From a bacterium (GTDB lineage: Bacteria > Patescibacteriota > Minisyncoccia > Phycocordibacterales > CALRBL01): 64,000 bases of DNA. Shown here piece after piece: positions 2,826 through 7,666 of this stretch. The position numbers and the translations under genes were made by a program. The notes below the pieces were generated by a model. It was not told the origin of the DNA. It saw only the letters and a program-made list of their open reading frames with translations, and did not search any database. Each line of letters begins with the position of its first letter. Position 1 is the stretch's first letter. The stretch covers positions 79,202 to 143,201 of the forward strand of contig JAIYEG010000002.1 in assembly GCA_027487075.1 (NCBI GenBank), written 5' to 3'.

Positions 2826-2844
2826 TTTTGTGGTATTGTGTGGC

Positions 2845-3190
2845 TCTGCGCCAGACAATCGCTCTCGCTTGCGAGGGAGGAAAGTCCGAACACAGCCAGC
2901 TTCGGCTGGAGCACGTAGCGGGTAACGCCCGTCTTGTCATATTCAAAAAGGGGCAAAGAGGTGCGAGCAGTGACGCTTGAAGCGAAAGCAGAGAGCATCC
3001 ATAGCAATGTGGATGAATCCATGTGGTAACACACGGAGTGAAACGGCAAAATCCTTACGTCTGTGCAAGGCCGTGTCCCACGAAGTAATTCGTGGTGAAG
3101 TGCCGCTCGAGGGTGTCAGCGATGACACTCCCAGATAAATGATTGTCACCACAGCAATGTGGCACAGAATTCGGCTTATCGGCGCAGGAC
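2845..3190 (+). ncRNA. rnpB: RNase P RNA (bacterial type A-like)
   Basis: Conserved blocks in native order: gggaggaaagtccg (CR-I GGAGGAAAGTCCGGGC), ggtaacgcc, ggagtgaaacgg, acagaattcggcttatcgg (ACAGAANCCGGCTTA). P1 pairs ctgcgcc (2846-2852) with ggcgcag (3181-3187). An extended -10 tgGTATTGT sits just upstream. The ORFs called across this region are spurious. Confidence 0.85.
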
Positions 3191-3197
3191 ATACATG

Positions 3198-3754: not shown

Positions 3755-6622
3755 ATGACACGTCAATACGACCCGAAAGACATTGAACCCAAGTGGCAAA
3801 AAGCGTGGGAAAAGCAGGGAATTTACGCCACCAAGGAAACCGCGGACAAGCCGAAATACTATGTACTCGACATGTTTCCGTATCCGTCTGGCGAAGGGCT
3901 TCATGTGGGGCATCCCAAGGGCTACATTGCCACCGATGTGATCTCGCGTATGAAGCGTATGCAAGGCTTCAATGTACTCCACCCGATGGGGTTTGATGCA
4001 TTCGGTCTTCCAGCCGAGCAATATGCAATCAAGATGAAGACAAACCCTGCGGTAGCAGTGGAGAAAAACGTCGCACGCTACAAGAAGCAGCTTGAAATTC
4101 TTGGTTTTGATTACGATTGGTCACGTGAAGTGAATACCACCGATCCTAAATACTATAAATGGACGCAATGGATCTTTTTAAAATTGCTTGAAAAAGGTTT
4201 AGCAGAAGAACGCTATGAACCGATCAACTGGTGTCCTGTTGATAAGACCGGGCTTGCGAATGAAGATATTGAAGATGGAAAGTGTGAGCGCTGTGGTGCA
4301 GTGGTTGAAAAGCGCCTCATGAAGCAGTGGGTGCTTAAGATTACGCAGTATGCCGATCGCCTGCTCAGTGACCTCGATGCGAAAAAAGAAGACGGCACAC
4401 CACTTCTCGATTGGCCAGAGTCAATCAAGGAAAGCCAGCGAAACTGGATTGGAAGAAGTGAGGGGGCTGAGATTGATTTTAAGTTGATCGAAGCGGGATC
4501 TAAAAATGAAATCGCATGTGCGACGGTGTTCACAACACGAGCAGACACGCTTTTTGGTGTGACGTATGTGGTACTTGCTCCTGAACACTCTCTTGTTGCT
4601 GAACTTCTTGAAAAATCTTCGAATAAAAAAGAGATTGAGGCTTACATTAGTATGACAAAGGCTAAGACTGAAATTGATCGTACTGATACAACAAAAGAAA
4701 AGACTGGAGTAGAGCTTAAGGGTGTTCGAGCTATCAACCCAGCAAATAATGAAGAAGTTCCGGTGTGGATTGCTGATTACGTACTTGCAGATTATGGAAC
4801 AGGAGCAGTAATGGCGGTACCAGCGCACGATGAGCGTGATTTTGTATTTGCAAAGAAGTTTGCATTACCTATTAAGCATGTAGTGGCTCCATATCATATA
4901 CAAGGGGGTAAACATGTGCCACGTGAAGGCATTGAAACTCTTACACGCAGAACTGTCACAGTTATTCTTGAAAACAAGAAAAATGAAGTACTTATTATTG
5001 CTGAACCGGATACCACAACTCTTCTTGGTGGAGGAATCGAAGAAGGGGAGATGCCTACAGAAACTGCACTGCGCGAAATCAAAGAAGAAACAGGATATGC
5101 TGATGTTGAGGTAAAAGAAACCATTCTTGATAACTTCTTTGCAAAAGGATACCGATATACAAAAGGTAAAAATACTTTCACAAATGACTATATCATTCAT
5201 GCTGTATTAAAAAGTGATACACAAGAGAAAAGCGAGATTGATGAAGGTCGTCACCACATAAAATGGGTACCGAAAGAAAATGTACTTAATGAAATACCTC
5301 ACACACATAGTCACTATGAAATCTTCAAGTTATTTTTAAAACCTCATCATACCGGTGATGGATTACTTGTTAATTCATGTTCATTTGATGGAAAAAATTC
5401 ATCAGACGAAGTAAGAAAGGAAATTACCAAACACGTCGGGGGCCGATGGGTGACCAAGTACAAACTCCGCGACTGGGTGTTCTCACGTCAGCGTTATTGG
5501 GGTGAGCCAATTCCTGTGGTGCATGATGAAAATGGTTTGGTGATTCCCCTCAAAGAAGAGGATCTTCCGCTTGAACTTCCAATGGTAGAGCACTATGAGC
5601 CGACTGATACGGGAGAATCTCCGCTCGCTAACATTCCTGAATGGGCAGAGTTTGAAGTCGATGGCTACAAATTTAAACGAGAGACTAATACCATGCCGCA
5701 ATGGGCGGGTTCTTCGTGGTATTACCTCCGCTATATGGATCCGCATAATGACACGACGCTCGTCGACTCTGAAAAAGAAAAATACTGGAACTCAGTAGAC
5801 CTTTATGTGGGCGGTGCAGAGCATGCAACGCGCCACCTTATCTACGCACGCTTCTGGCACAAGTTCTTGTATGACATCGGTGTGGTATCAACCCTCGAAC
5901 CATTCACCAAACTTGCAAACCAAGGGCTTATCACTGCATCAGATGGTCGCAAAATGTCGAAGCGCTGGGGTAATGTGGTGAATCCTGATGAGATGGTAGA
6001 CACCTTCGGCGCTGATTCGATGCGCCTCTACGAGATGTTCATGGGTCCATTTGACCAAGCTATCGCGTGGAATACGAATGGGGTAGTGGGAACACGTCGC
6101 TTCATCGAAAAAGTATGGAAGCTCTCATCAAAAGTGACTCACGATGCACCGTCACATCCCGCGCTGCATCGCACCATCAAAAAAGTTTCTGAGGATATTG
6201 CCGGCATGAAGTTCAACACCGCGATTTCGTCTATGATGATCTTCGTGAATGATCTTGAGAAGGCTGCCTCGGTCTCATGTGCCGATATGGAAGCATTGCT
6301 CAAACTTCTCGCGCCATTTGCTCCTCATGTTGCGGAAGAGCTCTGGGAAGTGCTTGGCAATGAAGGAAGTATTCACCTTTCATCGTGGCCGACCTTCGAT
6401 ACTTCGAAGCTCGAGGAAGATGAGGTCACTATCGCTGTGCAAATCAACGGAAAGACACGCGAAACCATGCGTGTTGCCCGCAATCTTGACGAACAGGTGG
6501 TTGTAGACATGGCAAAGGGAAGTGAGGGGCTCAAAAAATGGATCAAAGAAGGTCAGATCAAGCGGGTGATCTGGGTCAAAAACCGCCTCCTCAACCTCAT
6601 AATTGACTTATCAGCAGAATAA
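3755..6622 (+). CDS. leuS: Leucyl-tRNA synthetase carrying an in-frame Nudix hydrolase domain insertion
   Basis: HIGH-region PYPSGEGLHVGHPKGY, zinc knuckle CERCGAVVE, editing domain (TTRADTLFGVTYVVLAPEH ... AVPAHDERDFVFAKKF), KLRDWVFSRQRYWGEPIP and KMSKRWGNVV. It is 955 aa versus roughly 860 typical. An extra segment of about 150 aa between the editing domain and the LRDW motif carries a canonical Nudix box GGGIEEGEMPTETALREIKEETGY. Confidence 0.95.
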   Translation: MTRQYDPKDIEPKWQKAWEKQGIYATKETADKPKYYVLDMFPYPSGEGLHVGHPKGYIATDVISRMKRMQGFNVLHPMGFDAFGLPAEQYAIKMKTNPAVAVEKNVARYKKQLEILGFDYDWSREVNTTDPKYYKWTQWIFLKLLEKGLAEERYEPINWCPVDKTGLANEDIEDGKCERCGAVVEKRLMKQWVLKITQYADRLLSDLDAKKEDGTPLLDWPESIKESQRNWIGRSEGAEIDFKLIEAGSKNEIACATVFTTRADTLFGVTYVVLAPEHSLVAELLEKSSNKKEIEAYISMTKAKTEIDRTDTTKEKTGVELKGVRAINPANNEEVPVWIADYVLADYGTGAVMAVPAHDERDFVFAKKFALPIKHVVAPYHIQGGKHVPREGIETLTRRTVTVILENKKNEVLIIAEPDTTTLLGGGIEEGEMPTETALREIKEETGYADVEVKETILDNFFAKGYRYTKGKNTFTNDYIIHAVLKSDTQEKSEIDEGRHHIKWVPKENVLNEIPHTHSHYEIFKLFLKPHHTGDGLLVNSCSFDGKNSSDEVRKEITKHVGGRWVTKYKLRDWVFSRQRYWGEPIPVVHDENGLVIPLKEEDLPLELPMVEHYEPTDTGESPLANIPEWAEFEVDGYKFKRETNTMPQWAGSSWYYLRYMDPHNDTTLVDSEKEKYWNSVDLYVGGAEHATRHLIYARFWHKFLYDIGVVSTLEPFTKLANQGLITASDGRKMSKRWGNVVNPDEMVDTFGADSMRLYEMFMGPFDQAIAWNTNGVVGTRRFIEKVWKLSSKVTHDAPSHPALHRTIKKVSEDIAGMKFNTAISSMMIFVNDLEKAASVSCADMEALLKLLAPFAPHVAEELWEVLGNEGSIHLSSWPTFDTSKLEEDEVTIAVQINGKTRETMRVARNLDEQVVVDMAKGSEGLKKWIKEGQIKRVIWVKNRLLNLIIDLSAE

Positions 6623-6637
6623 TGATAAAAAAAAGTC

Positions 6638-7666
6638 ATGGCACTCATTACTTTTAAACCAAAGCAGGTCAGCAAGCGTCTTATTGGATCGCTCCAGTCA
6701 CGTGCCAAGGAAGTTATCATCAATCGGTATGGTCTTGGCGCAGACAGCAAGCGTATGACTCTCGAGGCTATCGGAGACATGTATCACATCACTCGTGAAC
6801 GTGTGCGTCAGATCGAAAATGCCGCCCTTTCTAATATTCGAAAGTCAGAAGAGTTTAAAAAAGAAAAAGAAGTATTTGCTGAACTTGAAGCAGTCCTCAA
6901 GAAGGCCGGAGGCATTGTTGCTGAAGAAGATTTTCTTAATCACCTCACCAAAGACAAGAGTACTCAGAATCACCTCAACTTTTTGCTTGTAATCGGCGAC
7001 TCTTTCCGCAAGGAACGTGAAGACGATGAATTCAAGCACCGATGGTATGTCGATCCTGAACTTTCAAAGAAGGTTCATGAGTCGCTCCGCAAGCTCTACA
7101 GCAGCCTTTCAGATGACACGCTCGTATCTGAATCAGAACTCATCACGCAATTCCTTGAATATCTTAAGGATGTTTCAGATGAATACCGCCAAGAAGAAGT
7201 GATCAAGCGATGGCTCTCAATCTCAAAGAACATTTCGAAGAATCCGCTCGGTGAATGGGGTCTTGCGTCATCATCAAACGTACGTGCAAAAGGTATTCGT
7301 GACTATGCATTCCTCGCAATGCGAAAACATGGTTCTCCTATTCACTTCCGTGATATTGCAAAACTCATTAGCGAACTTTTCAACAAGAAGGCTCACCCAG
7401 CAACCACTCACAACGAGCTCATCAAAGATAATCGTTTTGTGCTTGTAGGACGCGGTCTCTACGCACTTTCTGAATGGGGATATCTCTCAGGTGTGGTAAA
7501 AGATGTGATCAAGAAAATCCTCGAAAAGAATGGTCCTCTTACTCGTGAACAAATCATCGATAAAGTGATGAAAGAGCGCTACGTAAAAGAAAACACTATT
7601 CTCGTCAATCTCCAGAATCCGAAATTCTTCAAGAAATCGAAGGACGGAAAATACTCTGCTGTATAA
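6638..7666 (+). CDS. Sigma-70 region 4-type HTH protein with an N-terminal HTH and no sigma region 2
   Basis: N-terminus ...RMTLEAIGDMYHITRERVRQIENAALSNIRK matches sigma-70 region 4.2. The roughly 260 aa that follow have no motif I recognise. Confidence 0.55.
   Translation: MALITFKPKQVSKRLIGSLQSRAKEVIINRYGLGADSKRMTLEAIGDMYHITRERVRQIENAALSNIRKSEEFKKEKEVFAELEAVLKKAGGIVAEEDFLNHLTKDKSTQNHLNFLLVIGDSFRKEREDDEFKHRWYVDPELSKKVHESLRKLYSSLSDDTLVSESELITQFLEYLKDVSDEYRQEEVIKRWLSISKNISKNPLGEWGLASSSNVRAKGIRDYAFLAMRKHGSPIHFRDIAKLISELFNKKAHPATTHNELIKDNRFVLVGRGLYALSEWGYLSGVVKDVIKKILEKNGPLTREQIIDKVMKERYVKENTILVNLQNPKFFKKSKDGKYSAV

Follow-up and report, generated by a model that had tools for sequence, protein, structure and literature searches.

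Does the leucyl-tRNA synthetase (LeuRS) of a patescibacterium carry a second enzyme within its own editing domain, and what might that enzyme do there? The question is raised by the leuS gene in a stretch of 64,000 nucleotides of contig JAIYEG010000002.1 (hereafter, the window), in which an earlier note, made from the sequence alone, had placed a Nudix hydrolase domain in-frame inside LeuRS. Our analysis confirmed this: a full-length match to the Nudix family PF00293, with a perfect Nudix box, lies nested between the LeuRS domains, and it is almost certainly a real domain that has been kept by selection. The domain, its fold, the integrity of its motif, its insertion site, its conservation and its association with aminoacyl-tRNA synthetases (aaRSs) were all established computationally. 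LeuRS and Nudix hydrolases are both well-known kinds of protein, and the accretion of domains by aaRSs is likewise familiar, having been well studied in eukaryotes. A specialist would probably be surprised by the double nesting, the multiple hydrolase inserts, the association with both aaRS classes and a testable link between aaRSs and diadenosine tetraphosphate (Ap4A).

A Nudix domain inside the LeuRS editing domain

The Pfam scan of the 955-residue LeuRS recovered the expected tRNA-synt_1, editing (PF13603) and anticodon-binding domains and, nested between them at residues 397-526, the NUDIX domain that the earlier note had expected such a scan to find. PF00293 scored 58.6 bits (E 8.8e-16) in the whole protein and 61.8 bits (E 9.1e-17) in the segment alone against a cut-off of 21.1, and the gathering threshold for the Nudix superfamily was exceeded over the full domain. 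The Nudix box, GGIEEGEMPTETALREIKEETGY, keeps every catalytic and metal-binding residue (E432, R440, E441, E444 and E445) and is the sole strict Nudix box in all six frames of the window.

The limits of the insert were obtained from the Thermus thermophilus LeuRS (1h3n). Because the alignment to this protein breaks off at its residue 362 (..LPIKKVI) and is taken up again at residue 379 (EPGIMVNSGPFDG), the insert was defined as residues 378-533, an in-frame cassette of 156 amino acids late in the CP1 editing domain that takes the place of a 16-residue loop (T. thermophilus residues 363-378). Identical boundaries were found when the nearest relatives without a Nudix domain were aligned. The limits first proposed, 4870..5440, were right in substance and slightly generous, the alignment giving 4886..5353. 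The enlarged gap that had been noticed after the editing domain is also real: the AHDERD and KLRDW anchors are 207 residues apart in the window protein, and among its relatives this spacing falls into two classes, of 203-229 residues with an insert and 33-80 without one.

For residues 378-533, AlphaFold2, supplied with an alignment of 40 diverse inserts, returned a compact alpha/beta/alpha domain (mean predicted local distance difference test score, pLDDT, 93.8; predicted template modelling score, pTM, 0.88). The structure prediction called for by the earlier note produced a confident alpha/beta/alpha sandwich, and the Nudix fold of the cassette is certain. In the full-length LeuRS model (pLDDT 84.6, pTM 0.75; about 90 pLDDT in the insert), adjacent strands at 377-382 and 536-538 lead into and out of the insert, and the cassette is thus predicted to be mounted on a beta-hairpin stalk that emerges from CP1.

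The synthetase that hosts the cassette is unambiguously of bacterial type, as indicated by the HIGH and KMSKS motifs and by a score of 991 bits for TIGR00396 (leuS_bact; cut-off 548), the match being split in two at residue 383. An identical protein, P0001, is present in the public protein collection. PF13603 matches residues 229-381 (profile positions 1-144 of 185, 199 bits), and the CP1 editing domain includes both the T-rich motif and the catalytic Asp. Judged by these motifs, HIGH, KMSKS, T-rich and editing Asp, the host LeuRS looks intact, complete and competent for editing. No domain and no catalytic or editing motif of the canonical LeuRSs of T. thermophilus (1h3n/2byt) and Escherichia coli (4aq7) is missing from it (alignment E 1.7e-196), and it differs from them in the 156 residues that replace the loop; as a result, CP1, itself a Rossmann-fold insertion, becomes a host. 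In a survey of inserted domains from 2026, PF13603 was listed as insertion-exclusive, with no instance as a host (PMC13114784), and cassette-bearing LeuRSs are exceptions to its rule that the editing domain never hosts insertions.

A mobile-element signature was considered for the insert and rejected, since its borders show neither terminal repeats nor a splicing domain. The Pfam scan of LeuRS gave no Hint or splicing domain of the kind expected from an intein or other self-mobile element, and no direct or inverted repeats bracket positions 4886 and 5353. A perfect 14-nucleotide inverted repeat does occur in this region, with arms at 4847..4860 (TTTGCAAAGAAGTT) and 5132..5145 (AACTTCTTTGCAAA). 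One arm stands just before the insert, where it codes for FAKKF, and the other within it (NFFAK), so that the insert is not bracketed.

Recurrence, conservation and probable exchange of the cassette

The cassette is common in relatives of the window protein. PF00293 was detected in most of its best 120 LeuRS homologues, which were aligned with MAFFT; those with names are 'leucine--tRNA ligase' proteins of Patescibacteria, Paceibacterota or Taylorbacteria. Where the source databases name such proteins, they mostly use plain 'leucyl-tRNA synthetase' or 'leucine--tRNA ligase'. With each species represented by one genome, a scan retrieved 80 LeuRS loci, of which about 68 have the cassette; the loci belong to Paceibacterota, Taylor-, Morani-, Vogel-, Falkow-, Uhr- and Berkelbacteria and others. 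The proportion is not an estimate of frequency, as the scan ranks cassette-bearing genes higher. The search of related genomes for the same fusion, which the earlier note had proposed, thus found it to be common in the retrieved Patescibacteria LeuRSs and not unique to this genome. These data also bear on whether the architecture might be an artefact, that is, a misassembled chimeric contig or a neighbouring gene fused in frame. The local dip in GC content at third codon positions (GC3) could in principle flag foreign DNA. However, the same in-frame architecture with the same boundaries recurs in more than 100 proteins from independent NCBI, JGI, ENA and Logan assemblies and species-representative genomes, the frame runs unbroken from conserved LeuRS sequence before the insert to conserved LeuRS sequence after it, and the AlphaFold2 model is confident. 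The chance of an artefact is consequently negligible; misassembly was rejected, and with it the concern about a chimeric join that had been raised at the outset.

When the insert profile was searched against 1.84 billion representatives at 50% identity, 182 proteins matched at E <= 1e-30 and 1,030 at E <= 1e-10, with 23,279 generic Nudix matches at E <= 1e-3. Because these match counts stand apart from the generic ones, the profile marks the cassette as a Nudix family in its own right, set clearly apart from other members of the superfamily. A profile was needed to find it, since the high divergence of the inserts left a word-indexed search with this insert alone at only 6 matches.

Conservation was assessed in 388 near-complete cassette copies from 329 proteins, aligned with hmmalign and numbered according to the window LeuRS. 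The strict Nudix box is kept in 89 of 96 inserts at the window's own site (site B, below), and 305 of the 388 copies, that of the window included, retain the full set of five catalytic residues. Among single positions of the same set, G426 (386 copies), G427 (379), E441 (386) and E445 (387) are nearly invariant. Outside the box, R398 (372), K470 (380), N473 (360), R474 (348), W504 (379) and a Tyr or Phe at 466 (353) form an additional signature that is 90-99% conserved, whereas mean pairwise identity is only about 32% between inserts and 69% between LeuRS bodies. The retention of box, catalytic and signature residues despite low overall identity indicates that the cassette is under purifying selection. 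One variant recurs, in which E432 is replaced by Gln and R440 by Ala, Thr or Met, with E441, E444, E445 and the binding signature retained. It is mostly found as an additional copy at site A beside an intact one (for example, P0035 373-533, P0128 407-570 and L061 443-602) and may bind substrate without cleaving it.

The LeuRSs of Patescibacteria accept hydrolase domains at four or more places. In the alignment of 120 sequences, which includes proteins of up to 1,530 amino acids, at least four insertion sites were recognized. Site A, between the catalytic/ZN1 part and the start of CP1, grows from 36 residues to about 200 with one Nudix domain or about 365 with two. Within CP1, a further site expands from 140 to 318 residues with an alpha/beta Ser_hydrolase (PF06821), and site C, after RDW..SRQRYWG, from 188 to about 400 with a HAD_2 phosphatase domain. 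Site B is the late-CP1 loop that holds the Nudix domain of the window. The Nudix domains of site A score 150-180 bits against the site-B profile and therefore belong to the same family. Relatives with extra in-frame domains at the three other sites are P0003, P0029, P0033 and P0028. In some lineages, site B is occupied instead by unrelated inserts of about 170-220 residues (L066, L024, L020, L032, L057, L049, L072, L082 and L075), which comprise at least three sequence types without a Pfam match; the one in L066 resembles an aminoglycoside-2''-adenylyltransferase/nucleotidyltransferase (PF10706, 27 bits).

The earlier note had taken the AT-richness of the insert as a sign of later acquisition. 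The AT-richness itself was confirmed (GC 0.368 versus 0.470; GC3 0.237 versus 0.476), but the trough is not specific to the insert. Low GC3 (0.24-0.33) extends over residues ~210-570, which include the whole CP1 editing domain as well as the insert, and the first and last thirds of leuS have a GC3 of about 0.5 (mean of the open reading frames in the window 0.447, standard deviation 0.092). AT-richness was therefore rejected as proof of recent acquisition, and the trough over codons ~210-570 may mark a recombined block.

Lateral exchange appears better backed by mosaic patterns of identity. Cassette presence and absence are intermixed among the nearest LeuRS bodies: at 78% body identity to the window protein, P0004 has a site-B Nudix domain and P0010 has none, and at 77%, P0008 has none and P0003 has three copies. 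The tight body cluster P0001-P0006 contains four site-B insert types that are mutually 18-26% identical. In P0007, the N-terminal core is the most distant of 119 (57%), and the insert is by far the closest (56%; next 32%). Body and insert identities are only weakly correlated (Mantel r 0.31). Given this correlation, the four insert types within one body cluster and the mosaic P0007, simple vertical inheritance with losses is insufficient. We favour exchange of the CP1/cassette block, or of the cassette itself, together with rapid divergence and repeated loss, as the probable history. P0007 may be a long branch, and for this reason it does not fix the balance of lateral exchange versus fast divergence.

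Association with aminoacyl-tRNA synthetases and proposed function

The cassette also occurs outside LeuRS. About 34 of the top 150 representatives in the insert profile search are free-standing genes of ~160-200 amino acids, and genomic context was examined for nine of them. Six have an aaRS gene as an immediate neighbour. P0141 ends 2 nucleotides before a Nudix-bearing leuS; P0156 ends 2 nucleotides before a leuS with an uninterrupted CP1, which represents a complementary 'split' state; P0210 lies between argS and ileS; P0242 precedes a gene with tRNA_SAD; P0219 precedes a class I aaRS C-terminal fragment; and P0205 follows proS after 16 nucleotides. Against a background of about 4%, this adjacency has a binomial P of ~3e-7, or ~1e-4 when related cases are collapsed conservatively. 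The cluster that includes P0210 and argS further contains a second Nudix, a dUTPase and a thymidylate kinase, and its isoleucyl-tRNA synthetase (IleRS; L088 5094..8498) has a His_Phos_1 domain (PF00300) inserted in the catalytic domain.

The same cassette was found in a class II synthetase, prolyl-tRNA synthetase (ProRS), where it lies in-frame between the anticodon-binding and C-terminal domains (P0273). Five distinct ProRS clusters carry it (P0273 and P0277-P0280; 641-674 amino acids), and their Nudix-less relatives, several of them labelled DPANN archaea, have about 480 amino acids. Additionally, a free-standing gene of 276-279 amino acids (P0126, L001 5001..5831; also P0122-P0125), situated among ftsW, mraY and pbp, combines a degenerate C-terminal piece of CP1 (AHD->SHI) with a Nudix cassette that is intact and the re-entry motif TGDGL. 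By its sequence, it looks like a module that escaped from a LeuRS-Nudix gene. Free-standing, site-A and site-B copies interleave by identity. In the reading that we favour, at about even odds, the cassette family, which has a signature of its own beyond the Nudix box (R398, K470, N473, R474 and W504), is dedicated to aaRSs.

Sequence and structure neighbours hint only at the class of substrate. The Foldseek matches were, in order, 2azw, the Aquifex Ap4A hydrolase 3i7u, NudI, MutT1, BdRppH and RppH; the decapping effectors AvrM14 and oomycete WY-Nudix were also among the structural neighbours, as was NrtR among the fold matches. A profile search of the sequences in the PDB gave 2azw (7.6e-12), the lupin Ap4A hydrolase (1.8e-10) and the Aquifex Ap4A hydrolase (5.9e-9), and the neighbours further include the ApnA hydrolase Rv2985/MutT1, the T. 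thermophilus Ap6A hydrolase Ndx1 and DIPP1. Taken together, they lean toward polyphosphate substrates. R398 of the cassette aligns with the Arg of the YR(R/P)NVG motif in the lupin enzyme, and Y466, a position with Tyr or Phe in most copies, lies 18 residues past the Nudix box. A Tyr about 16-18 residues downstream of the box is reportedly a criterion for Ap4A hydrolases (Dunn et al. 1999). Nevertheless, the cassette is only 17-26% identical to known Ap4A and polyphosphate Nudix hydrolases (Aquifex aq_158 3i7u, lupin 1f3y, T. thermophilus Ndx1, Mycobacterium tuberculosis Rv2985/MutT1 and E. coli RppH). Those enzymes are free-standing and unlinked, whereas the cassette is embedded in or encoded beside aaRSs and has its own signature, K470-x2-N473-R474 and W504.

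It has been established that aaRSs form Ap4A from aminoacyl-adenylate and ATP and that Nudix enzymes split Ap4A to AMP and ATP (PMC10148737, PMC7705103, PMC13627108). An aminoacyl-adenylate is formed by all aaRSs. We propose that this adenylate, while bound to the enzyme, would be attacked by ATP or another nucleotide, giving rise to Ap4A, Ap3A or Ap4N by-products, and that the Nudix module would cleave these asymmetrically in a Mg2+-dependent reaction (Ap4A to AMP and ATP). In these organisms, whose genomes are very small, the producing enzyme would thus dispose of its by-products itself. If the two aaRS classes share the substrate, this would account for the ties of a single Nudix family to LeuRS, ProRS, ArgRS/IleRS and a ThrRS/AlaX-like gene. 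The cassette would be expected to act as a divalent-cation-dependent pyrophosphohydrolase, and the window protein has about an even chance of being a bifunctional enzyme, in which an editing-competent LeuRS is joined to an autonomous, putatively catalytic Nudix pyrophosphohydrolase (residues 378-533). An aaRS-linked function as a nucleoside-polyphosphate (ApnN) hydrolase is held slightly more tentatively; catalytic activity, substrate identity and kinetic coupling are all things that we infer. Clearance of Ap4A itself is plausible and is supported indirectly by the aaRS fusions and adjacencies and by the presence of Ap4A hydrolase, MutT1 and RppH among the structural neighbours.

The earlier note had also suggested that mis-activated aminoacyl-adenylates might be hydrolysed. 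An aminoacyl-adenylate is an acyl-phosphate anhydride of a nucleoside monophosphate, and Nudix enzymes cleave diphosphate linkages. Because the bond is not of the Nudix type, this activity is unlikely; the suggestion found no support and was rejected on chemical grounds.

Several observations weigh against an ApnN-hydrolysing, aaRS-linked cassette. Its top structural match, 2azw, is itself uncharacterized: this Enterococcus faecalis MutT/nudix family protein, a structural-genomics target without assigned function, is free-standing, about 20% identical to the cassette and without the KxxNR motif in the alignment, and it allows no transfer of function. No Nudix subfamily model in NCBIfam reaches its cut-off for the cassette, and substrate assignment by curated models was consequently rejected, all scores being far too low. 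The RppH model PRK00714 attained 25.9 bits against a cut-off of 259 and aligned over the N-terminal half only. The models for MutT 8-oxo-dGTPases (TIGR00586, 16.3 bits versus 97.9; PRK10776, 18.9 versus 148), and for ADP-ribose pyrophosphatases of the YffH/AdpP and NudE/NudF kinds (TIGR00052, 15.8 versus 79.55; NudE, 19.8 versus 169) were likewise below theirs. The window copy has a Thr at position 474, where Arg prevails in the family. Reviews single out LysRS as the producer of Ap4A, and LeuRS is, to our knowledge, not a prominent one. Furthermore, three of the nine free-standing copies have other neighbours, namely fpg and spoU (P0167), a uridine-kinase-family gene (P0211), and HAD and Nudix genes (P0244), and these contexts fit general nucleotide sanitation equally well.

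Such contexts lead to the most serious alternative, which we nonetheless consider unlikely: the Nudix domain could be a general sanitizer of the nucleotide pool or a salvage enzyme (such as a MutT1/NudI-type pyrophosphatase for NTPs or 8-oxo-(d)GTP) that has lodged in a tolerant loop of an essential, constitutively expressed protein, its expression thereby being guaranteed in a streamlined genome, with no mechanistic link to aminoacylation. Other hydrolases occupy other LeuRS sites in relatives (HAD_2, alpha/beta Ser_hydrolase and extra Nudix domains), as His_Phos_1 does in an IleRS; fpg, uridine kinase, dUTPase/thymidylate kinase or HAD genes adjoin some free-standing copies; MutT1 and NudI are among the top Foldseek matches; and the module of CP1 fragment plus Nudix persists as an independent gene with no aaRS nearby. 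All of this speaks for a housekeeping passenger. However, such a passenger leaves unexplained the repeated fusion or adjacency to both aaRS classes (LeuRS, ProRS, ArgRS/IleRS and ThrRS/AlaX-like), which is far above chance, and the MutT family models are far under their cut-offs.

Two further alternatives are each improbable. The cassette might act on RNA, as an RppH-like or decapping-like pyrophosphohydrolase that strips tRNA(Leu), or another RNA held by LeuRS, of a triphosphate or of a non-canonical cap (Np4A or NAD) at its 5' end. The RppH models are the best, though weak, NCBIfam matches, RppH, BdRppH and decapping effectors are structural neighbours, and the host binds tRNA, whose acceptor stem places the 5' end near CP1, as is generally known of LeuRS-tRNA complexes. 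Yet these models are 10-fold under their cut-offs, mature tRNA has a 5' monophosphate after cleavage by RNase P (the RNase P RNA gene lies just upstream), the free-standing and ProRS-inserted copies would need another route to RNA, and no RNA-binding extension is evident in the 156-residue domain. Alternatively, the cassette might be a sensor or structural module that binds a nucleotide (Ap4A, ADP-ribose or (p)ppGpp) and tunes editing or aminoacylation allosterically, or that stabilizes CP1, with catalysis secondary. The putative binding residues R398, K470, N473 and W504 (93-98%) are more conserved than E432 and R440 (81%), the Q...A variant without these two residues persists in many copies, non-catalytic Nudix sensors such as NrtR are among the fold matches, and unrelated non-Nudix inserts share site B. 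A sensor is nevertheless difficult to reconcile with the ~99.5% conservation of E441 and E445, which is hard to explain without catalysis; the set of catalytic residues is complete in the window copy and in 79% of all copies, and the Q...A variants are mostly extra copies beside an intact one.

If we return to the cassette as an aaRS-linked polyphosphate hydrolase, a broader and more speculative picture can be drawn. In Patescibacteria, the family might move among three states, being inserted in LeuRS (at two sites) or in ProRS or standing alone next to an aaRS gene, with lateral exchange between lineages. It might also belong to a wider, undescribed strategy in which class I aaRSs (LeuRS and IleRS) are the scaffolds on which as many as four or five domains that hydrolyse small molecules (Nudix, HAD, alpha/beta hydrolase and His-phosphatase) are mounted, forming a metabolite-proofreading hub that destroys Ap4A-like side-products and their breakdown products in cells whose usual stand-alone enzymes have been lost. 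Taken as a whole, this picture is less likely than not.

The earlier note knew of no described LeuRS with this architecture. A search of the full-text literature on LeuRS and aaRSs, Nudix, Patescibacteria/Parcubacteria/candidate phyla radiation (CPR), and domain insertion or fusion likewise yielded no description of it, and NCBIfam contains no curated LeuRS-plus-Nudix model. The nearest parallel there is NF040702, 'isoleucine--tRNA ligase, N-acetyltransferase domain-containing', which similarly joins a class Ia synthetase to a domain that modifies small molecules. In that family, the partner is a GNAT and the host IleRS, whereas here Nudix is nested in the editing domain of LeuRS, in proteins with up to three copies. 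Another parallel is NadM-Nudix, a bifunctional nicotinamide mononucleotide adenylyltransferase/ADP-ribose pyrophosphatase that combines a HIGH-motif nucleotidyltransferase fold with a Nudix domain whose substrate is a related nucleotide metabolite. There, the Nudix domain, of ADP-ribose pyrophosphatase type, is fused terminally, in contrast to the nested insertion of the window protein, which the ADP-ribose pyrophosphatase model TIGR00052 does not match.

Fusion and adjacency of one Nudix family to aaRSs point to an undescribed link between tRNA charging and the clean-up of nucleotide by-products. Should Ap4A-type hydrolysis prove true, this would be the first aaRS to carry an enzyme that removes its own alarmone or by-product. 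It would bear directly on the long-debated role of Ap4A as a signal versus a damage metabolite, and it would offer a simple in vitro test system, one polypeptide with or without a Glu-to-Gln mutation. Natural experiments are provided by the same cassette in fused, adjacent, duplicated, degenerate and escaped forms. The family may also show how bacteria with ultra-small genomes consolidate housekeeping chemistry onto essential proteins.

The leuS gene and its surroundings

The features of leuS and its neighbourhood are listed below.

Features of the leuS locus, in window coordinates and LeuRS residue numbers
Feature	Position	Strand	Residues	Basis
RNase P RNA gene, class A bacterial	2843..3194	+		RF00010, 119 bits, full length
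leuS, bacterial-type LeuRS hosting the insert	3755..6622	+	955 in total	open reading frame list, TIGR00396
HIGH signature HVGH, aminoacylation site	3902..3913	+	50-53	motif scan
ZN1 zinc knuckle	4232..4294		160-180	
CP1 editing domain before the insert	4439..4885	+	229-377	Pfam PF13603
T-rich editing motif TTRADT	4532..4549	+	260-265	motif scan
Editing Asp motif GTGAVMAVPAHD	4796..4831	+	348-359	motif scan
Inserted Nudix cassette	4886..5353	+	378-533	replaces T. thermophilus LeuRS residues 363-378
NUDIX match	4943..5332	+	397-526	Pfam PF00293, profile positions 2-133 of 134
Signature residues outside the box	4946..5266	+	R398 (4946), Y466 (5150), K470 (5162), N473 (5171), W504 (5264)	
Nudix box GGIEEGEMPTETALREIKEETGY	5030..5098	+	426-448	exact fit to Gx5Ex7REUxEExGU
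Last CP1 segment GDGLLVNS..., then KLRDWVFSRQRYWG	5354..5503	+	534-569, then 570-583	alignments, motif scan
KMSKS signature KMSKR	5951..5965	+	733-737	motif scan
Anticodon-binding domain	6164..6502	+	804-916	Pfam PF08264
Sigma70_r4 and HARE-HTH protein gene	6638..7666	+		

The ZN1 zinc knuckle reads CPVD...CERC in the window protein and its closest relatives, and CPSC...CERC in the family consensus, one Cys ligand thus being replaced by Asp in the window LeuRS. The RNase P RNA gene lies about 560 nucleotides upstream of leuS and accounts for the GC-rich stretch ahead of it. Directly 3' of leuS stands the gene for the Sigma70_r4 and HARE-HTH protein, and the same order, leuS followed by this gene, is also found on the contig that bears P0141.

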